NCBI GenBank assembly: GCA_007131295.1
Contig: SLQW01000036.1
Coordinates: forward strand, 16,766 to 80,765
Reading direction: 5' to 3'
DNA length: 64,000 nt
Source: Pseudomonadales bacterium
GTDB taxonomy: Bacteria; Pseudomonadota; Gammaproteobacteria; Pseudomonadales; Azotimanducaceae
Made by a program: the position numbers and the translations under genes. Below the pieces are notes generated by a model. That model was not told the origin of the DNA. It saw nothing but the letters and a program-made list of their open reading frames with translations, and did no database searches. Positions 6,580-26,219 of this stretch are shown piece by piece. Within the stretch, counting starts at the first letter, position 1; every line of letters starts with the position of its first letter.

Positions 6580-6844
6580 TTGATCGACTCCGATGGGCGA
6601 CGGCGGGGGCAGGCGGTAGCGACACAAACATGCTCGCCGCTCTCGCGCGTTGCAGTTCCATGCTGTTTCTTCATGCACCAAGGCGCGAAGTGAAGGCAGC
6701 CCCGGCGGGCCACTTACGATACAGGACTCCGGCATCGCAGCGCATCTGCAGTCAGCGGAAGGGCTCGCGTTCCCGCCCCTGCACGCCCAAGCATAGTCCA
6801 GCCGGCCCAGTCGGCGATGCCGCCAGGCGCCCGCAGCGTCGGGT

Positions 6845-7711
6845 TCAGCGGACGACGTCGAAGTAGCTTTCCACCCGCGTCAGGTGACCGTCGACGTCGG
6901 TTTCTTCTGCGTTGTGGGTGGCGAAGGCCAGGTGGGTGCAGCCGAGCGCCCGCCACTTCTCTGCGTGGGTGGCCCAGCGCTCCGGCGTACCGCCCTGGAA
7001 CTGCGCCTGGGCCTGGATGCCGAATCCGTCCATGCTGCGGCCGGCAGCCTCCCGGTGGCGGCGCATGGTTTCGATGCAGTCGCGCGCCTTGTCGTTGGCG
7101 CCCATCAACGGCATCCAGCCGTCGCCATGTTCGGCGCAGCGTTTCAGCAGCGCCGGAGCCGAACCGCCGAACCAGATGGGGATGGGCGCTGACGGCCGCG
7201 GCAGGATGCTGGCCGCGTCGATCCGATGGAACCGACCCTCGAACGTCAGGCTGTCTTCCGACCAGAGCTTGCGCAGCAGTTCGACCTGCTCGGTCTGGCG
7301 GGCACCGCGCTCCGCGAAGGGGATCCCGAGCGCCTCGTACTCGATTCGGTTCCAGCCGGTGCCCACCCCCAGGCGGAGACGATTGCCGGACAGGATCGCC
7401 ACCTGTGCGGCCTGCTTCGCGACCAGTGCAGTCTGTCGCTGCGGCAGGATGAGCACCGTGGTCACGAGCTCGAGGCGCTCGGTGACGGCGGCCAGATAGG
7501 CCAACGTCGTCAGCGGCTCGTGAAACGCCACGTCTTTGTCATAGGGTCCCTTCCAGCCACCCGGCCGATTCGGGTCGGCGCCCAGGACGTGGTCGTAGAT
7601 CAGAAGATGGGTTGCGCCGAGTGCCTCGACGCCCTGGGCATAGGCTTTGATGGCACCGGCATCGGTGCCGATCTCGTTGTGCGGGAAAACCACTCCGAAC
7701 TGCACTGTCAT
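6845..7711 (-). CDS. LLM-class (luciferase-like) flavin/F420-dependent oxidoreductase
   Basis: From ORF 6845..7837, trimmed to ATG at 7711, which is preceded by GGAGGGA. MTVQFGVVFPHNEIGTDAGAIKAYAQGVEALGATHLLIYDHVLGADP... and GVGTGWNRIEYEALGIPFAERG are typical of the luciferase-like monooxygenase fold. Confidence 0.8.
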   Translation of the reverse strand: MTVQFGVVFPHNEIGTDAGAIKAYAQGVEALGATHLLIYDHVLGADPNRPGGWKGPYDKDVAFHEPLTTLAYLAAVTERLELVTTVLILPQRQTALVAKQAAQVAILSGNRLRLGVGTGWNRIEYEALGIPFAERGARQTEQVELLRKLWSEDSLTFEGRFHRIDAASILPRPSAPIPIWFGGSAPALLKRCAEHGDGWMPLMGANDKARDCIETMRRHREAAGRSMDGFGIQAQAQFQGGTPERWATHAEKWRALGCTHLAFATHNAEETDVDGHLTRVESYFDVVR

Positions 7712-7849
7712 CCCTCCGACGGTTACTCTACGGCCAGTATACGCAGCGACCGGGGGAGTCGGGATCGCCGTTTGCTCGCACGCAAGCCGGACCGGGTGCA
7801 CGTGCGCCGTGTGGTAACCTCTGGAAAATTCGATCAAGGAGATTACCGC

Positions 7850-8719
7850 ATGGCTCTTCGGTTACTCGGTCCGCTTCTGCTTGCTTCCCTGCTGATCGCG
7901 TGTGGTCCGGCCGAGCCTCCCGAGCCTGAAGGTCCGACGCCACGACCCGTGCCGGATCGCCCCGAGCCGGTCGACCCGGAGGCCGGATTGCGGGAGGCAG
8001 TGCGCACGGCCATGGCCGGCGCGCACCGCTCGGCAGTGAATCAGGCGCGCGACGATCAGCGCAACCCGGAAGAGACGCTTGCCTTTCTGGGGCTGCAGCG
8101 CAGTCACCGCGCGATCGAGATATGGCCTGGCGCCGGTTGGTACACTGAGATACTCGCACCGGTGCTGCGCGACCACGGCCAGCTGATCGTTGCCAACGGG
8201 CAGCAGGCGCTGATGGACAAGTTCGAGGCGGACCCGGGAGTCTACGATCAGTTGGAGGTCGTTCGGTTTGCGCCGCCGGATGAGGCCCGCCTCGGCGAGG
8301 AGGGCAGTGCCGACTTCGTGCTCCTGTCGCGCCACTTCCACAATCTCGCTGCACGCGGCCTGGAGGATGTCGTGCTCGGCGCTGCCTACGACGTGCTTCG
8401 GTCCGGTGGCATTCTCGGCATCATCCAGCACCGGCTCCCGGACGATCGCGAATTCGATCTCGAGGAACGTACCGGCTACGTGCCCGAGTCCTTCGTGATC
8501 GAGGCAGCTGAGCGTGCGGGGTTCGAACTCGCCGACAGCAGTGAGGTGAACGCGAACCCGCTGGATACCGCCGACCACGAACTCGGCGTATGGACGCTGC
8601 CGCCGACCTTCCGCGCCTGTGCCGATATCGACGACGAGGCGGAACTCGCTGAATGCCGTGAGCGCTACGAAGCGATCGGGGAGTCCGACCGGATGACCCT
8701 GCGTTTCGTTAAGCCCTGA
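7850..8719 (+). CDS. Predicted class I SAM-dependent methyltransferase with lipoprotein-type N-terminus
   Basis: This is the real part of ORF 7226..8719. The ATG at 7850 is preceded by AAGGAGA. The N-terminus is MALRLLGPLLLASLLIAC. Methyltransferase motif-I-like AIEIWPGAGWYTEIL, and later GGILGIIQH. Confidence 0.6.
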   Translation: MALRLLGPLLLASLLIACGPAEPPEPEGPTPRPVPDRPEPVDPEAGLREAVRTAMAGAHRSAVNQARDDQRNPEETLAFLGLQRSHRAIEIWPGAGWYTEILAPVLRDHGQLIVANGQQALMDKFEADPGVYDQLEVVRFAPPDEARLGEEGSADFVLLSRHFHNLAARGLEDVVLGAAYDVLRSGGILGIIQHRLPDDREFDLEERTGYVPESFVIEAAERAGFELADSSEVNANPLDTADHELGVWTLPPTFRACADIDDEAELAECRERYEAIGESDRMTLRFVKP

Positions 8720-19548: not shown

Positions 19549-20418
19549 ATGCAGCGCAGCAGTGAAGAGGGAGGTCTGCAGACCGTGCGGGTCAGCTCCT
19601 GGAACGAACTGCAGGAGGAGCTGTTCGCAGATTCCTGGAACGCCAAGATCGGCCGCTTCCGGTCCCACCACGCGTTCCGCGGCCTGTCTGATGCGCGCTA
19701 TCCGCTGGCAACGACGTTGATGCGCCTTGGTGGCCACTTTGCGGAGCTCGAGCGGCACCTGGTGCGTAACTTCCGCAAGTACGCCCACGGCAGCGTGGTC
19801 GAGCAGGATCAGCTCTGGAACTGGGTCTCGGTGGCCCAGCACTACGGACTCCCGACCCGGCTGCTGGACTGGACCAATTCACCCTATGTGGCGCTCCACT
19901 TCGCGACGGCCAACGTCACCCGGTTCGATGTCGACGGCGTCGTCTGGGTGGTGGATTACACCGGCGTGCATCAGCAGCTGCCGCAGACGCTCGAGGCGGC
20001 CCTCGAGCGGGAAGGCGCGACGATCTTCACCGGGGAGATGCTGTCCAGGGAGATCGCGACGTTCGAGGAGATGACGGCCATCTCCGACGAACCCTTCGCA
20101 GTGTTCTTCGAGCCGCCTTCCATCGATCCGCGCATCTATCAGCAGTATGCGTTCTTCTCCGTCGTCTCCGACAACCGCATGGCCTTCGACGACTGGCTGC
20201 GTGCGCATCCGGAGTTCGGCCGCAAGATCGTGATTCCCGCCGAGCTCAAGTGGGAGGTTCGCGACAAGGTGGATCTCGCGAACATCAACGAACGTACCCT
20301 GTTCCCCGGACTCGAGGGCCTGTGCAGCTGGCTGCGCCGCTACTACAGCCCGAGTCCGACGCTGCTCGCATCCGATCCGAGCCTTTCCCCGCCGAACGAC
20401 TACGACCACGGAGCCTGA
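19549..20418 (+). CDS. FRG domain-containing protein (function unknown)
   Basis: From ORF 19390..20418, trimmed to the ATG at 19549 after GGAGAGG. It carries HAFRGLSDARYPLATTL ... WNWVSVAQHYGLPTRLLDWTNSPYVALHFA, the FRG motif followed by the QHYGLPTRLLDWT core of Pfam FRG. Confidence 0.75.
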   Translation: MQRSSEEGGLQTVRVSSWNELQEELFADSWNAKIGRFRSHHAFRGLSDARYPLATTLMRLGGHFAELERHLVRNFRKYAHGSVVEQDQLWNWVSVAQHYGLPTRLLDWTNSPYVALHFATANVTRFDVDGVVWVVDYTGVHQQLPQTLEAALEREGATIFTGEMLSREIATFEEMTAISDEPFAVFFEPPSIDPRIYQQYAFFSVVSDNRMAFDDWLRAHPEFGRKIVIPAELKWEVRDKVDLANINERTLFPGLEGLCSWLRRYYSPSPTLLASDPSLSPPNDYDHGA

Positions 20419-20420
20419 CC

Positions 20421-21254
20421 ATGCCAACGGAAGGCCTGCGCGTGGGATTGGTGCAGTTCACCGCGACCACCTCCATGGCGCGCAACATCGAGCTCACCAT
20501 GGTCGCGACCCGCGCTGCCGCAGCCCAGGGTGCGGAGCTCGTCTGCCTGCCGGAAGTCGCGAACCTGATGCAGCGGCAGCGGCGGGAAGCGGCTAAGGTC
20601 GTCTGTTTCGAGGCGTCCGATCCTGCCTTGGCAGCCTGGCGGGCGCTCGCAGGTGAGCTCGGGATCTGGCTCCACGCGGGATCGCTGGTGCTGCGCAGCG
20701 AGGAAGACGAGCGCTTCGTCAATCGTGGTCTGCTGATTGGCCCTGACGGTGGCATCAGGGCGCGTTACGACAAGATCCACATGTTCGATGTCGATCTCGA
20801 CGGCGGTGAAAGCTACCGGGAGAGCAGCGGTTTCCGGCCGGGGGAGCGGGCCGTGCTCGCACAAACGCCCTGGGGCGGCTATGGCCTGACGATCTGCTAC
20901 GACCTGCGCTTTCCCCATCTCTACCGGCTGCTGGCCCAGGCGGGAGCGCGCATCCTCGCGGTGCCTTCGGCGTTCACGCGGCAGACGGGTGCCGCCCACT
21001 GGCACACCCTGCTCCGTTCCCGGGCCATCGAGACGGGGTGCTTTGTGCTCGCTGCGGCCCAGTGCGGCGACCACGAGGATGGTCGCCAGACTTACGGCCA
21101 TGCCTTGGCAGTGTCGCCCTGGGGTGAAGTGCTCGCTGATGCGGGCGAAACGCCGGGCGTGGTCGTGGTCGACCTCGATCTCGCCGCGGTGGAAGCGGCG
21201 CGCGGCAAGGTGCCTTCCCTGTTCCACGACCGCACGATTGCGCCACCGGCTTGA
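20421..21254 (+). CDS. Carbon-nitrogen hydrolase (nitrilase superfamily, Nit/omega-amidase-like)
   Basis: From ORF 20250..21254, trimmed to the ATG at 20421, 2 nt after the FRG gene stop. The E-K-C triad contexts are LVCLPEVANL, YDKIHMFD and LTICYDLRFP. Confidence 0.85.
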   Translation: MPTEGLRVGLVQFTATTSMARNIELTMVATRAAAAQGAELVCLPEVANLMQRQRREAAKVVCFEASDPALAAWRALAGELGIWLHAGSLVLRSEEDERFVNRGLLIGPDGGIRARYDKIHMFDVDLDGGESYRESSGFRPGERAVLAQTPWGGYGLTICYDLRFPHLYRLLAQAGARILAVPSAFTRQTGAAHWHTLLRSRAIETGCFVLAAAQCGDHEDGRQTYGHALAVSPWGEVLADAGETPGVVVVDLDLAAVEAARGKVPSLFHDRTIAPPA

Positions 21255-21264
21255 GCCTTTCTGT

Positions 21265-22152
21265 TCAGCGCTCGGCGGCTGCGGCCTCGTTAGCGTAACC
21301 CCGCAGCAGCGCGTGCAGCGTTTCCGACGCAAGGCCGTGCAGAACGAGGCGGAAGCCGGCTCGCAGCGTGCTCAGAGGCACCAGCGGGTGGCGGTTGTTG
21401 ACCTGAGCCAGATACCGGTGCCCGTTCAGCAGATCGGCGCAGTAGCTGCCGATGGTCTCATCGAGCTGCAGCGAGTTGGTGGCGCGCCAGAAATCATCGT
21501 CGGAGAGGAAGATCTGGTAGACGGGCGTGAAGAGCTCGATTGCCGTTTGCAGATCCAGCACGTTGGTCCAGCGGTTCGGCATGTCCTCGAGGCGCACCGG
21601 CGGCTCTGACAGATCGCTGAAGTTGACCCGCTCTGGTGGCGTCAGCCGCAGATCGAGGTCCTTGAGCTGTCGGTTTAGCGCGATCACGAAGTTGAACAGG
21701 TTGAGATCGTGGCGCACGAACACATGGTCGCGCAGGTCGGCGATGGCCAACGGCCGCAGGGGATCCGTCGCCACCTCGACGCCCTGCGGCGCGTTGCGGG
21801 CGATGAAGGCCAGGATGTCGCTACCGATGTGAAAGTGGCGCAGGATCAGCCAGTTCGCTTCCGGTCGCACGAAGCGCGTCAGGCCCCAGACCAGCAGCGC
21901 GTGCAGTGCGCCGGAAGCGCGTGCGTTGCGGGGCATGACGATTTTCACGAGCTGGAACAGGATGATCAGCAGCCGCGCCAGCGGCCGAACCAGCGGCAGG
22001 AAGTACTGCCTGGATGCCGAACTCGAGTCCGCCAGCCATGCCTGTTTGACGTGATCCCCGAGCGGCGTGCTGCGATCCAGGTACAGCGCCAGCCAGGGGT
22101 TCGGATCCGACGTATCGTGGGCCAGGGTTTCAAAGTCGGGAGCATGCTTCAT
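21265..22152 (-). CDS. Hypothetical protein, no family recognised; translationally coupled to the KAS III-HDO fusion gene
   Basis: 295-aa ORF with strong third-position GC bias and a balanced amino-acid composition. It has one hydrophobic stretch, YFLPLVRPLARLLIILFQLVKIV. Its ATG overlaps the upstream gene's stop (ATGA at 22149-22152). Confidence 0.7.
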   Translation of the reverse strand: MKHAPDFETLAHDTSDPNPWLALYLDRSTPLGDHVKQAWLADSSSASRQYFLPLVRPLARLLIILFQLVKIVMPRNARASGALHALLVWGLTRFVRPEANWLILRHFHIGSDILAFIARNAPQGVEVATDPLRPLAIADLRDHVFVRHDLNLFNFVIALNRQLKDLDLRLTPPERVNFSDLSEPPVRLEDMPNRWTNVLDLQTAIELFTPVYQIFLSDDDFWRATNSLQLDETIGSYCADLLNGHRYLAQVNNRHPLVPLSTLRAGFRLVLHGLASETLHALLRGYANEAAAAER

Positions 22153-24098
22153 GCCGCATCCTCGAGCTGCATGAGGTAGAGCTCGGCCGTGCGACGCGCG
22201 GTGTCGACGATATCTGCCGTCACGACATTGCGGTCCGGGGCCCGATCGAGCACCAGCTCCACGGCGCGCAGCCAGCGCGCAAGGTGCGCCATGTCGTTCT
22301 CGCCGTGATAGTGCAAGAACCTGAACACCGGCCCCAGTTCCTTCAGCTGGCGCCGAATCAGCGGCAGCAGCGCCGGGATCAGGCGCTGGCCGGAACCCTC
22401 GATGATGTAGATCGCCCCGAGCAGCCCGACGGCATCAGCTTGCGCGGCACGGGCGTGCAGGTAGGCATTCAACGCCTCGCCCCCGGGGTTGCGGCGCAAG
22501 GCTTCCAGGTCGCTGATGGCGCCTCCGGCCCGGCGATAGTCCTCGAACAGGATCCGGAAGTCGTTCTGTTCCTCGGCTGCGTGGCCCTCGATCAGCGTGC
22601 GCAAGGCGTCGTATCGGTCGGAGAGATTCGCGACTGCCGTGCGCATCCAGCGCGTACCCTCGCGGACCTGAGGAATCCAGTCGCCCATCCACCTGAGGTA
22701 GTCCTCCCGGGTGAACGTATGGGTGACGATGCGGCGCACCGGGCCGCTGCGCCAGGCCCGAGAGCGGAAGTCGCTCCAGACCGCGGCGAGGTCGAGCAGA
22801 AGTTGCGCGAGCTCAGGTTGCCTGGCTGCATCGACGGCTCCTGGGTCGTGCGGCGGCGGTGCTGCCAGCTCAGGTTCCGGATCCAGGACGGATTCGCGAA
22901 TCCCCGGAGCAGTGCGCAGGGGCTTGCGCCCGCCGGCATCAGGGCCGACCACTTCGAGCATGGCAAAAGCGACGGTGAAGCGACCCGACTCGGGAACGAA
23001 CAGCAGGATGCGTTCACCGGGTGCTGGTGAACGCTCGCGCAGGAAGTCGTCGAGCATGACGAAGATCGAGGCCGCGCCCGTGTTACCGCGGGTGCTCAGA
23101 TTCGTATACCAGCGCTCCTCAGGAATCGCGAGTTCCGCTTTCTCCAGGCAATCCTTTACGACCTGACGGAAGCGTTCGGAAGAGTAGTGACAGAGAAAGT
23201 GGTCGATGCCTGCGGGATCTACCGCGTTGCCTCGCACCAGATCCGCATAGGCATGAATGCCGACGTCGAACAGGTGCGGCAGCAGGCGGATGTCCTGCCG
23301 CAGCAGCAGGGCGCCGGAGCGTTCCGCTGCCGCCGCGTTCGCATGATCCAGCCAGCCCATGGCACCTTGCCTGGGCAGCCCCATTTGCATGCACAGCGGG
23401 TAGTCACCGGCGTGGCTGACGCTGTGCACGAAGTGCAGCCGGAGGCTGTTTCGGCCAGGCGGCGGCGCGGCGCTCAGGCGCCAGGCGCCCGCGGCATCGG
23501 AAAGCATCCAGCGGAGAAAGTGGGCATCGAAATCGAGATCGTAGTCGTCCGGCGCGAACCGGCTGCACTTGAACAGGCGTGACGGCGCTTCGCTTGCAAC
23601 CACCATGGCGGAGTCGTGCTCGCCGCGATCCACCGCGCGGGCCGCATCCGCAAGTGCCTGCATGCCCGAGGCGCAGACGCCGTGATGACTCGTCGTAGCC
23701 AGCGGCGCCCAGCCGAGCTCCGCCTGTACCTGATTCGCCAATCCCGGTAACAGGAGATCGCCGCCGGAAGTCGCGCTGGCGAGCAGCCCCACCTGTTCGT
23801 CACTCGTTTCCGCCGCACAGGCTCGTACCGCCGCGGCAGCCATGGCGGTGACGCTGAAACGGGTGCTGCCCTGCTCATCGATCGCGTAGTGACGGGTCCG
23901 GATGCCGTTCTCCTTCAGGATGCGGCGCTTGATGCGGTCGGACATCCTGTTCACGGGTGCAACGAAGCGGTCGATAGCCGAGTTGTCGACGGCGGGTCCA
24001 GGCAGGAAGCTTCCTGTCCCGTCGATGTAGACGCTTGCGAAGGGCACCACGCGATCCATGACCTGTTGCTCGAAGAAACCACTCGTTAGGGTCAGCAT
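22149..24098 (-). CDS. Fusion protein: N-terminal 3-oxoacyl-ACP synthase III (FabH/KAS III)-like condensing enzyme plus C-terminal heme-oxygenase-like (iron-containing redox enzyme family) domain
   Basis: The N-terminal ~385 aa carry candidate triad residues Cys142 (HHGVCASGMQAL), His304 (IDHFLCHYSSERF) and Asn339 (TRGNTGAASIF). A Pro-rich linker reads PEPELAAPPPHDPG. The C-terminal ~220 aa are helical and contain IEGHAAEE, IIEGSG and FLHYHGENDMAH (H-x3-D-x2-H). Confidence 0.8.
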   Translation of the reverse strand: MLTLTSGFFEQQVMDRVVPFASVYIDGTGSFLPGPAVDNSAIDRFVAPVNRMSDRIKRRILKENGIRTRHYAIDEQGSTRFSVTAMAAAAVRACAAETSDEQVGLLASATSGGDLLLPGLANQVQAELGWAPLATTSHHGVCASGMQALADAARAVDRGEHDSAMVVASEAPSRLFKCSRFAPDDYDLDFDAHFLRWMLSDAAGAWRLSAAPPPGRNSLRLHFVHSVSHAGDYPLCMQMGLPRQGAMGWLDHANAAAAERSGALLLRQDIRLLPHLFDVGIHAYADLVRGNAVDPAGIDHFLCHYSSERFRQVVKDCLEKAELAIPEERWYTNLSTRGNTGAASIFVMLDDFLRERSPAPGERILLFVPESGRFTVAFAMLEVVGPDAGGRKPLRTAPGIRESVLDPEPELAAPPPHDPGAVDAARQPELAQLLLDLAAVWSDFRSRAWRSGPVRRIVTHTFTREDYLRWMGDWIPQVREGTRWMRTAVANLSDRYDALRTLIEGHAAEEQNDFRILFEDYRRAGGAISDLEALRRNPGGEALNAYLHARAAQADAVGLLGAIYIIEGSGQRLIPALLPLIRRQLKELGPVFRFLHYHGENDMAHLARWLRAVELVLDRAPDRNVVTADIVDTARRTAELYLMQLEDAA

Positions 24099-24134
24099 AG
24101 GTCATGGAGTGCCAGCCGGGGGATGTTCGGAATC

Positions 24135-25463
24135 TCAGTCGTCCCCGTACCAGTGCATGCCCGCGAAGCGCATGTGCACCCGGCGCCCATGCGGGCGGTA
24201 TTCGAAACGGAACCGGAACACATCCGGTTCCGTTTCGTCGACGAAAGTGCGCTCCCCCACGTGGCGCAGGCGCCCGCCCGGCAGGGGATCAGGCATGCGC
24301 ACATGGAGCGCGCCGTCCTCACGGACAAAGCTGGCGCTGAAGGCGCCGAAGTCGTAGTCGCCGGTCCAGGCATCGATATCGATGGCCGCGATGGGCAATT
24401 CCGTGTAGCTGGGCGGTGGCTTCAGAAAGATCCGCCGGGCCAGTTCCCGCTCCACTGCGTCCATCGCCACGTCGCCGAGGTTGCCGAGCACGACGATGAC
24501 GAGCTCGTCATACGGGTAGAGCGCTGCACTGGCGGAGAATCCACGGTTGCTGCCGAGATGGCCGAACTTGGCGCGTTCGCCGAACGGGATCAGGGAGAAG
24601 CCGTTGGCGTAGTCGAGGCGGGTGCCGTCGGCGAGCGTGCGCCGCTGCCAGAGCCGCTCCACAGCCCGCTCCGAGAGGACTTCGCCGTTGGCCAGAGCCC
24701 GGAGCCAGCGCGCCAAGTCGCGTGCGCTGCCGCAAAGTGCGCCCCCGCCGCGGAGCCAATCCATGTTCAGAAGCGGTGCCGGTTCGAGCCCGTCAGGTCC
24801 GATCTGGTAGCCGCGTGCCGTCTCCGGTAGGTCTGTCCGTGATGAGCAGTGATGGAGACTGGTCAAACCCAGCGGTTCGAAGAAACGTTCCTCCAGAGCT
24901 TGCTCGTAGGGCATGCCGGTCATCCATTCGACCAGCTGCGCCAGCAGCAGGTAGTTGGCGCTGCTGTACGACCAGTGTGTTCCGGGCGGAAAGTCGCTGG
25001 GCAACCGGCGCAGCAGGCCGAGCATCTCGGCGCTGCTGCGATCGGGATCCATGATTCCGGCGACGAACTCCGGCTCGAACAGCGGATCGCGGATGCCGCT
25101 CGTGTGATCGAGCAGATCGTGCAGCCGCAGCTCCGCCGGCAGGCGGTCGAAGTCGGGAAGATAGCGTCGCAGCGGCGCATCGAGCGACAGTCTGCCGGCA
25201 TCTGCAAGGTCTACCACGAGAGCGGCGAGGAATTGCTTGCCGATCGAGGCAAGCTGGAAGACGGTATCCGGCGTTATTGGCGTGCCCGACTCGAGGTCGG
25301 TGACCCCGAAACCCTCGGCGTACACGACACGGTCCCCATCCATGACCACCACGGCCATGCCCGGTAACTCGCGGTCGGCGGCAATGGCCTCGACGCGAGC
25401 GGCGAACGTCGAATCGACTGCTCCAGCCGTGGCGAACAGCAACCCGAGAGTCAGACCAAGCAT
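24135..25463 (-). CDS. Serine hydrolase, beta-lactamase/transpeptidase-like fold
   Basis: S-x-x-K motif (ASIGKQF) and Y-x-N motif (YSSANY). A hydrophobic N-terminus, MLGLTLGLLFATAGAV. GGAG lies upstream of the ATG. The stop is 36 bp upstream of the KAS III-HDO gene on the same strand. Confidence 0.85.
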   Translation of the reverse strand: MLGLTLGLLFATAGAVDSTFAARVEAIAADRELPGMAVVVMDGDRVVYAEGFGVTDLESGTPITPDTVFQLASIGKQFLAALVVDLADAGRLSLDAPLRRYLPDFDRLPAELRLHDLLDHTSGIRDPLFEPEFVAGIMDPDRSSAEMLGLLRRLPSDFPPGTHWSYSSANYLLLAQLVEWMTGMPYEQALEERFFEPLGLTSLHHCSSRTDLPETARGYQIGPDGLEPAPLLNMDWLRGGGALCGSARDLARWLRALANGEVLSERAVERLWQRRTLADGTRLDYANGFSLIPFGERAKFGHLGSNRGFSASAALYPYDELVIVVLGNLGDVAMDAVERELARRIFLKPPPSYTELPIAAIDIDAWTGDYDFGAFSASFVREDGALHVRMPDPLPGGRLRHVGERTFVDETEPDVFRFRFEYRPHGRRVHMRFAGMHWYGDD

Positions 25464-25607: not shown

Positions 25608-26219
25608 ATGGCACGCAGATCCTACCGCCGGGCCAACGGCCTGATGCTGCTCGAGGCGCGAGATCCGCGCATGCGCGCGCTGAAACGGTCCGGCCACGTG
25701 GCCGAGATCCATGGCGACCGGGTCTGGGACTCGAGCTTCCTGCTCATGCGGCAGCTGCAGCATGAGCCGCTCGAACGCCGGGCTCGGGTGCTCGAGATCG
25801 GCTGCGGCTGGGGCCTGCTCGGGCAGTTCTGCGCGAAGCGCTTCGGTGCCCGGGTCCACGGTATCGATGCCGACCCGAACGTCCTGCCCTATCTCGATCT
25901 GCATGCGGCGGTGAACGGGGTTCGCATGACCGCGGAGCGGCGCCGCTTCGAGCAGCTTACGACCGCTTTCCTAAGTGATTTCGACGTGGTGCTCGGGGCC
26001 GACATCTGCTTCTGGGATTCGCTGACCAGGCCGCTTTTCAATCTGATCCGACGCGCCCGCCGCGCCGGCGTCGGGCGCATCCTGATCGCCGATCCCGGAC
26101 GCGCGCCGTTTCAGGCTCTGGCTTCACGCTGCGAACGGCAGCTCGATGCGGTCTCGCGCGTCGCATTGGAAATCCGGCGGCCGGTGCATGCAGCGGGCGA
26201 CGTGCTCGCCATCGGCTGA
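25608..26219 (+). CDS. Class I SAM-dependent methyltransferase (lysine-methyltransferase-like, Methyltransf_16-type)
   Basis: From ORF 25476..26219, trimmed to the ATG at 25608 after GGAGA. VWDSSFLLMRQL...RVLEIGCGWGLLG is the motif I region, followed by VLGADICFW. Confidence 0.65.
   Translation: MARRSYRRANGLMLLEARDPRMRALKRSGHVAEIHGDRVWDSSFLLMRQLQHEPLERRARVLEIGCGWGLLGQFCAKRFGARVHGIDADPNVLPYLDLHAAVNGVRMTAERRRFEQLTTAFLSDFDVVLGADICFWDSLTRPLFNLIRRARRAGVGRILIADPGRAPFQALASRCERQLDAVSRVALEIRRPVHAAGDVLAIG

Follow-up and report, generated by a model that had tools for sequence, protein, structure and literature searches.

Three adjacent genes at positions 21265 to 25463 of a 64,000-nucleotide stretch of DNA from a Pseudomonadales bacterium (contig SLQW01000036.1; the whole stretch is hereafter called the window) pose the question whether closely spaced genes on one strand also form one pathway. 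In the order of transcription they encode a serine hydrolase, a fusion of a KAS III ketosynthase with a heme oxygenase–like (HDO) domain, and a protein of the DUF6999 family. The original prediction, made from the sequence alone, was that all three form a compact biosynthetic cassette that loads or releases an acyl group, condenses it, tailors it oxidatively and perhaps targets it to the membrane. Our analyses indicate instead that the locus is probably a conserved two-gene module, comprising a StlD/DarB-type ketosynthase–HDO fusion and DUF6999, that lies beside an unrelated hydrolase and has a ring-lipid product. We consider it very likely that the fusion and DUF6999 make up a working module to which the hydrolase does not belong as a conserved member; the identity of the product is the more tentative part and is weighed separately below.

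Conservation of the fusion–DUF6999 pair

For comparison with other genomes, tblastn searches were run with the window proteins and 80 related loci were fetched. The fusion family is large: it takes in more than 2,500 proteins, and length and architecture do not vary among the best 120 matches. When one genome was scanned for each species, relatives of the fusion turned up in at least 574 species, with hosts such as Lysobacter, Luteimonas, Pseudoxanthomonas, Dokdonella, Achromobacter, Bordetella, Alcaligenes, Variovorax, Chitinimonas and Steroidobacter. In all of the ∼77 loci with enough downstream DNA, DUF6999 is the next gene 3′ of the fusion and has the same orientation, at an offset from the fusion that ranges from 0 to ∼250 bp. 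Across orders, identity to the window proteins is 53 to 60% for the fusion and 54 to 67% for DUF6999, and metagenome-assembled genomes (MAGs) nearer to the window encode fusions that are 76 to 80% identical. The pair is also kept in five of five congeners. In the window itself, the fusion stop codon and the DUF6999 start codon overlap in the sequence ATGA at 22149 to 22152, and a Shine-Dalgarno–like GAGGA lies ∼8 nt 5′ of the DUF6999 start. The predicted grouping of a condensing enzyme/oxidase with the third gene is thus borne out as a real unit, being strongly co-conserved, translationally coupled and of lipid-type chemistry.

The distribution of the pair is patchy. Of 400 genomes sampled from the phylum, 5 matched DUF6999, and within the family to which the window belongs only 1 of 20 genera did. 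In the genome of Caulobacter vibrioides, a model organism that served as a control, the DUF6999 match exceeds the cut-off and the StlD/DarB model is matched as well, and this species probably carries the cassette. In one congener (locus L098, 6665 to 8553; G004:C162), the fusion appears as two overlapping tblastn pieces, 6665 to 7252 and 7228 to 8553, which suggests a frameshift, due either to a pseudogene or to a MAG assembly error.

The genes of the locus, the domains of the fusion and the flanking genes are as follows.

22149 to 24098, minus strand: ketosynthase–HDO fusion, 649 amino acids (open reading frame with Pfam and NCBIfam matches)
22941 to 24098, minus strand: StlD/DarB-type KAS III ketosynthase domain, fusion residues 1 to 386 (NF005293, 5gk0, Foldseek)
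22839 to 22940, minus strand: variable, low-confidence linker, fusion residues ∼387 to 420 (model confidence, gapped alignment)
22149 to 22838, minus strand: HDO domain, fusion residues ∼421 to 649 plus the stop codon (PF14518, 3dde, model)
21265 to 22152, minus strand: DUF6999 protein, 295 amino acids (PF22523)
24135 to 25463, minus strand: beta-lactamase–fold (S12 family) serine hydrolase, 442 amino acids (PF00144)
24099 to 24134, minus strand: 36-bp spacer from the hydrolase stop codon to the annotated fusion start (read from the sequence)
25608 to 26219, plus strand: SAM-methyltransferase gene, divergent from the hydrolase
ending at 21254, convergent: Nit/CN-hydrolase gene, 10 bp from the DUF6999 stop codon

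The arrangement that had been described, a same-strand trio with a 36-bp gap and a 4-nt overlap, flanked by the divergent methyltransferase gene and by the convergent Nit gene 10 bp away, is present in the sequence. G+C content is 0.65 to 0.68 and uniform over the region and its flanks, with no compositional anomaly. Because homologues begin at residue 14 of the annotated fusion (MDRVVPF), the true start of the fusion may be the ATG at 24059, in which case the spacer would measure 75 bp. A scan of the spacer at 24099 to 24134 found no terminator-like or sigma-70–like site, a result that is uninformative at 65% G+C; the one terminator-like match in the scan lies inside the hydrolase gene. Downstream of DUF6999, the Nit-type CN-hydrolase gene and an FRG-domain gene (together 19549 to 21254) adjoin the pair in all congeners examined, and the gene order DUF6999-Nit-FRG...TctA is kept in them.

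Relatives of the two proteins and their partner genes

The closest solved structure to the ketosynthase domain is StlD, with which it shares the KAS III fold and the Cys-His-Asn triad of StlD/DarB-type enzymes. The domain matches the NCBIfam StlD/DarB model NF005293 with an E value of 2.5e-93 over model positions 1 to 378, and the StlD structure (PDB 5gk0) end to end, with E values of 3e-89 in a profile search and 7e-56 with the single sequence. A Foldseek comparison with StlD gave a TM score of 0.85 at 32 to 34% identity. The triad residues Cys142, His304 and Asn339 are invariant in 12 aligned sequences, His304 of the fusion aligns with His302 of StlD, and the FLRWMLSDGAGA region is common to the window ketosynthase and StlD. 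OleA, CorB and AbyA1 are further structural neighbours. In Pfam, the domain is recognised as ACP_syn_III_C.

The linker that follows has a predicted local distance difference test score (pLDDT) below 50 at residues 389 to 416 and is gapped and variable in the alignment, and the HDO domain beyond it is modeled as a helical bundle with pLDDT values of 80 to 95. The domain matches the Pfam family PF14518 (Haem_oxygenas_2) with an E value of 3.8e-06. Precomputed PF14518 matches are listed for most members of the fusion family, and an HDO homologue that is separately encoded in locus L114 scores 41.2 bits to the same model. Six candidate metal ligands, H506, E510, E567, H598, D602 and H605, are all invariant in the alignment and would supply three histidines and three carboxylates on the helical bundle, the ligand set of HDO enzymes. 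The only significant solved relative of the domain, found with a profile at an E value of 1.8e-05 over ∼200 residues, is PDB 3dde, an uncharacterised heme oxygenase–like protein from structural genomics; in this alignment the H..E, E and H-x3-D-x2-H positions of 3dde match the candidate ligands of the fusion. The H-x3-D-x2-H motif is the one of CADD and SznF. The domain resembles the heme oxygenase–like dimetal oxidases and oxygenases UndA, CADD, SznF, BesC, AetD and PolF in its helical bundle with a PF14518 match, its three histidines and three carboxylates and its H-x3-D-x2-H motif, and differs from them in being fused to a ketosynthase and in having H-x3-E as its first-helix motif.

The third protein had been called unknown, but it belongs to a recognised family: it matches PF22523 (DUF6999) with an E value of 1e-122 and 408.9 bits over model positions 1 to 272 of 275, and the gathering score is reached. 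The family is compact: among 1.84 billion representatives it forms 491 clusters at 50% identity, and its members are nearly all ∼290 to 310 residues long or fragments. An AF2 model of the window protein (pLDDT 89.5; predicted TM score 0.88) is compact and all-alpha. A fold search with this model against PDB and BFVD gave no significant match (best E values of 0.47 and 0.21; TM ≤0.21), and a sequence search of PDB with DUF6999 gave no match. PolF, TenA and CmlI came up as fold relatives only at E >0.9 and TM ∼0.13, which is meaningless, and a diverged HDO was ruled out by an hhalign probability of 0.2%. The invariant residues of the family include R105, H106, H148, D149, D200, D231, H255, R268, H272 and E277. 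Since so many invariant His, Asp, Glu and Arg residues make an active or metal site likelier than a membrane anchor, DUF6999 looks like an enzyme with such a site, to judge from its conservation and its model. The suggestion that it targets a product to the membrane finds no support in this compact, helical protein.

All open reading frames of the 80 loci were clustered to find recurrent neighbours of the pair. Two membrane protein genes recur upstream on the same strand, one of the FA_hydroxylase family (PF04116, ∼258 residues; 53 of the 80 loci) and one of the FA_desaturase family (PF00487, ∼324 residues; ∼48 of the 80), and in ∼57 of the 80 one or both lie directly 5′ of the fusion. The order hydroxylase–desaturase–fusion–DUF6999 is found in 45 loci and in one more with a duplicated hydroxylase match, hydroxylase–fusion–DUF6999 in 8 loci and desaturase–fusion–DUF6999 in a few, and 13 loci, each with 2.2 kb or more of DNA upstream, have the pair by itself. 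The window is of this last type: neither a fatty acid hydroxylase nor a fatty acid desaturase gene adjoins its pair, and its genome holds no homologue of the desaturase and only a 30% identical homologue of the hydroxylase, located elsewhere. No further conserved partner was found in the pair-alone loci, only sporadic genes for short-chain dehydrogenases, helix-turn-helix regulators, OmpA and GumN. A short-chain dehydrogenase gene lies directly 3′ of DUF6999 in a Burkholderiales MAG (L037, 7316 to 8074) and belongs to a cluster of open reading frames seen in 6 loci; a divergent Cro/C1-type helix-turn-helix regulator gene lies upstream of the pair in L032 (6102 to 6878) and is seen in 3 to 4 loci.

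A locus from another class (L114, 4697 to 11029; G509:C6) carries the ketosynthase (398 residues), the HDO protein (248 residues) and DUF6999 as separate consecutive genes. The next gene, in the same orientation, encodes a 1,133-residue protein with major facilitator superfamily, PlsC acyltransferase and AMP-binding parts, which is LplT/Aas-like (acyl-ACP-synthetase–like). Together, the fatty acid hydroxylase and desaturase genes and this LplT/Aas-like neighbour point to a hydrophobic product that is derived from fatty acids.

In the known pathways, DarA or StlC aromatises the carboxy-cyclohexanedione ring made by DarB or StlD. Like the DarAB(C) and StlCD systems of Pseudomonas, Chitinophaga and Photorhabdus, which make dialkylresorcinols, cyclohexanediones and stilbenes, the loci described here encode a full-length StlD homologue with the same Cys-His-Asn triad. 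They differ from those systems in that no DarA/StlC-type aromatase partner was found in the window genome or the 80 loci, in that the ketosynthase carries a fused HDO domain and has DUF6999 as its constant partner, in that its scores fall below the curated cut-offs, and in that the accessory genes encode a membrane fatty acid hydroxylase and a fatty acid desaturase. As a proxy for DarA we used the conserved partner 5′ of near-canonical DarB proteins (480 to 537 bits) in six gammaproteobacterial genomes. A 311-residue protein is encoded directly 5′ of DarB in all six of these loci (L100 to L105), with a mutual identity of 42 to 60%; it has no Pfam or NCBIfam match and is presumed to be DarA by its position only. 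No homologue of this presumed DarA was detected in the window genome or the 80 fusion loci (best E value of 0.5). The copy in L100 (525 to 1460) has a flavodoxin-like N terminus and a hydrophobic C terminus. The NCBIfam model NF053538, which was considered as a DarA model, belongs to a different family.

The absence of PKS/NRPS hallmarks had led to the expectation that genome-mining tools would miss the locus, which is probably wrong. An antiSMASH "resorcinol" region with DarB named as the core gene has been published for Achromobacter mucicolens IA (PMC9045304), and another "resorcinol" region for Luteimonas salinilitoris C3-2-a3 (PMC12281983). The fusion is the sole StlD/DarB-like gene in both of these species, as it is in Bordetella bronchiseptica and in the window genome, so that antiSMASH probably labels such loci "resorcinol". 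The label would appear to be a homology call that comes purely from the DarB match, not from a product. A literature search found no paper on DUF6999 or on a ketosynthase–HDO fusion and no description of a product, enzyme activity or structure for the pair; a 2026 review of HDO enzymes mentions neither a ketosynthase nor the fusion, and nothing relevant was found on Caulobacter in connection with resorcinol or DarB.

A proposed pathway and the points against it

By homology, the locus is best read as a variant of the DarB/StlD pathway that depends on O2 and does without DarA; the variant is widespread, and the window carries it in its smallest form, the pair alone. In such a pathway, the ketosynthase would join a beta-ketoacyl thioester and a second acyl thioester head to head, by a Michael addition followed by a Claisen condensation, and the condensation product, as with StlD and DarB, would be a ring of the carboxy-cyclohexanedione type. 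The fused, O2-activating HDO domain would take the place of DarA/StlC in finishing the ring: an UndA-like oxidative decarboxylation of the ring carboxylate would aromatise or desaturate the ring and could give a resorcinol directly. DUF6999 would serve as a further catalytic or accessory subunit, probably metal-dependent, in an oxidative or otherwise essential step. Where they are present, as in most other lineages, the membrane fatty acid hydroxylase and fatty acid desaturase would tailor the ring or its chains, and the final product would be an oxidised dialkyl-resorcinol or a quinol-type lipid.

Taken by itself, the idea that the product is a resorcinol- or cyclohexanedione-type ring is tentative, and we rate its chances at slightly below even. 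A more far-reaching proposal appears doubtful to us. In this hitherto undescribed, O2-dependent route, the HDO domain would be an aromatase that decarboxylates the carboxy-cyclohexanedione while it is bound to the ketosynthase or just after its release, with no need of DarA; DUF6999 would found a metalloenzyme family with a new fold, and the pair would make a previously unrecognised class of redox-active dialkyl-quinol or dialkyl-resorcinol membrane lipids in Achromobacter, Bordetella, Variovorax, Lysobacter and their relatives, probably including Caulobacter.

Several observations weigh against a DarA-less DarB/StlD pathway in the window. The ketosynthase scores 313 bits to NF005293, for which the curated cut-off is 450 bits, and 255 bits to the resorcinol_DarB model NF053539, for which it is 550 bits; since neither cut-off is reached, the reaction may differ from that of StlD and DarB. 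The PF14518 match of the window HDO domain lies just under the gathering score (27.2 bits compared to 28.9 bits). The order of residues in the first helix of CADD and SznF, which we take to be E-x(n)-H, is unlike the H-x3-E found here. No relative with a known function could be detected for DUF6999, which makes the role given to it a guess, and the chemistry proposed for the pair is drawn entirely from homology. Finally, a hydrolase gene on the same strand, 36 to 75 bp upstream and with no terminator found in between, may be co-transcribed with the pair or may have been recruited to it in this lineage.

The low model scores also bear on what the ketosynthase and HDO domains might make together if not such a ring. 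A product that is not cyclised, or is cyclised otherwise, could arise by a plain, OleA-like head-to-head Claisen condensation or by PpyS/CorB-like pyrone formation, with the HDO domain oxidatively decarboxylating a beta-keto acid to a ketone or olefin or else hydroxylating it. UndA, the founding HDO enzyme, decarboxylates fatty acids to 1-alkenes, as does UndB of the fatty acid desaturase family. Besides the scores below the curated StlD/DarB and DarB cut-offs, the presence of OleA, CorB and AbyA1 among the structural neighbours and of a desaturase-family gene as a frequent neighbour would fit this chemistry. However, StlD outscores the others by a wide margin, with an E value of 3e-89 as against 7e-5 for CorB and 1e-9 to 1e-10 for OleA. 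The alignment with StlD is full length and takes in the shared FLRWMLSDGAGA region, and no OleBCD-like genes were present in the neighbourhoods of the fetched loci. We therefore regard products of the OleA or pyrone type as unlikely and retain the DarA-less DarB/StlD variant as the preferred reading.

The adjoining hydrolase and the meaning of the pair

The first gene of the trio encodes, as predicted, a beta-lactamase–fold serine hydrolase. It matches PF00144 with 238.7 bits and an E value of 1.3e-70; the Pfam-matched core spans residues 20 to 343, with ∼100 residues beyond it, and the residues expected of the S12 fold, S73-x-x-K76, Y166 and H302-x-G304, do not vary across the family. Among solved structures, the S12 enzymes that match it best are of both the peptidase and the esterase kind: IS11 (PDB 7spn, the closest by sequence), D-aminopeptidase, Pab87, alkaline D-peptidase and R61. 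The protein thus shares PF00144 with its S-x-x-K, Tyr and H-x-G elements with S12 hydrolases such as DAP, the R61 DD-peptidase, Pab87, EstB and IS11, and it differs from them in having YSS for YSN; its peptidase or esterase branch is not assignable by sequence alone, and no link to LovD-type acyltransferases was seen. The motif YSSANY that had been read from the sequence is present in the window copy but is not the canon of the family, in which 16 of 16 aligned homologues, including the orthologue from a sister species, have YSNxNY, so that a serine replaces the canonical asparagine. The third motif is HLG in the window and H[NGSTV]G in the family. At its N terminus, the window protein has a short, uncharged hydrophobic stretch, and the leaders of most homologues are longer and resemble signal or lipobox sequences. 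The motif departures and the short N terminus of the window copy could reflect an altered or relaxed function. The mostly export-type N termini make the family a poor fit to work on cytoplasmic acyl thioesters.

Comparative data placed the hydrolase apart from the pair. A hydrolase homologue adjoins the fusion in none of the 80 loci, and the only two hydrolase-like matches near these loci are 28 to 30% identical, on the opposite strand and 4 to 6 kb away. The co-conservation looked for in the trio therefore holds for the fusion and DUF6999 and fails for the hydrolase, which does not show the linkage expected of an EstB- or LovD-type enzyme that serves its neighbour genes. Among the five congeners, hydrolase orthologues (76 to 77% identity) are found in only two, G002 and G005, where they lie on other contigs, next to one gene for a Tle1-like phospholipase and another that weakly matches alpha/beta-hydrolases. 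The other three (G001, G003 and G004) keep the pair and have no hydrolase orthologue at E <1e-40. In the congeners, a PanE/ApbA reductase gene takes the place of the hydrolase 5′ of the fusion; in G002 it is accompanied there by genes for an enolase-superfamily protein and for a TonB receptor. Hydrolase homologues at 41 to 46% identity have unrelated neighbourhoods, and the window genome contains 8 paralogues of the hydrolase fold.

The adjacency of hydrolase and fusion is shared by one sister species only (fusion 86% identical), in which it was found in two independent samples. The sister species has the same 36-bp gap and the same upstream block of luciferase-like monooxygenase, MAPEG, methyltransferase, BCCT and second methyltransferase genes. 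Because the adjacency is limited to this sister species, we attribute it to a recent rearrangement in the ancestor of the two species, with the spacer at 24099 to 24134 as the breakpoint. Transcription of the hydrolase may nevertheless read through into the pair.

These findings bear directly on the idea that the three genes are a cassette at the level of the lineage, in which the hydrolase, co-transcribed with the pair, was recruited to load or release the acyl substrate or product as an esterase, thioesterase or acyltransferase. The shared strand, the 36-bp gap and the spacer without a terminator-like site favour it, as do the arrangement kept in two independent samples of the sister species and the closest solved relative, IS11, which we take to be a family VIII carboxylesterase. 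Against it stand the lack of adjacency in the fetched loci, the orthologues beside a phospholipase gene in two congeners, the pairs that lack a hydrolase in the other three, the unrelated contexts of more distant homologues, the signal- or lipobox-like N termini of most family members, the loss from the window copy of the otherwise family-invariant Asn of the YSN motif and the status of the gene as one of eight paralogues. On this evidence a recruited hydrolase is quite improbable, the claim that it belongs to the pathway is not sustained, and annotations of this window should keep the hydrolase out of the pathway. A housekeeping or stress role of the pair, in a membrane redox lipid, a cofactor-like molecule or an envelope-lipid modification instead of a diffusible metabolite or signal, would suit its unusually high cross-order conservation, its core-type gene surroundings without compositional anomaly and its membrane lipid-modifying and LplT/Aas-like, phospholipid-recycling partners, but the patchy spread is unlike that of a core function and makes such a role very improbable.

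With the StlD/DarB-type fusion and DUF6999 taken as the conserved module, the pair has meaning well beyond the window. The species that bear it include the opportunistic pathogens Achromobacter and Bordetella and the plant-associated Variovorax and Lysobacter, and Caulobacter vibrioides, if it carries the cassette, would be a tractable laboratory host. Solving the pair would extend the HDO superfamily by a type of reaction in which an HDO domain works in cis with a ketosynthase, and would give DUF6999 a function and a fold. A new lipid of bacterial membranes or signalling could also come to light.

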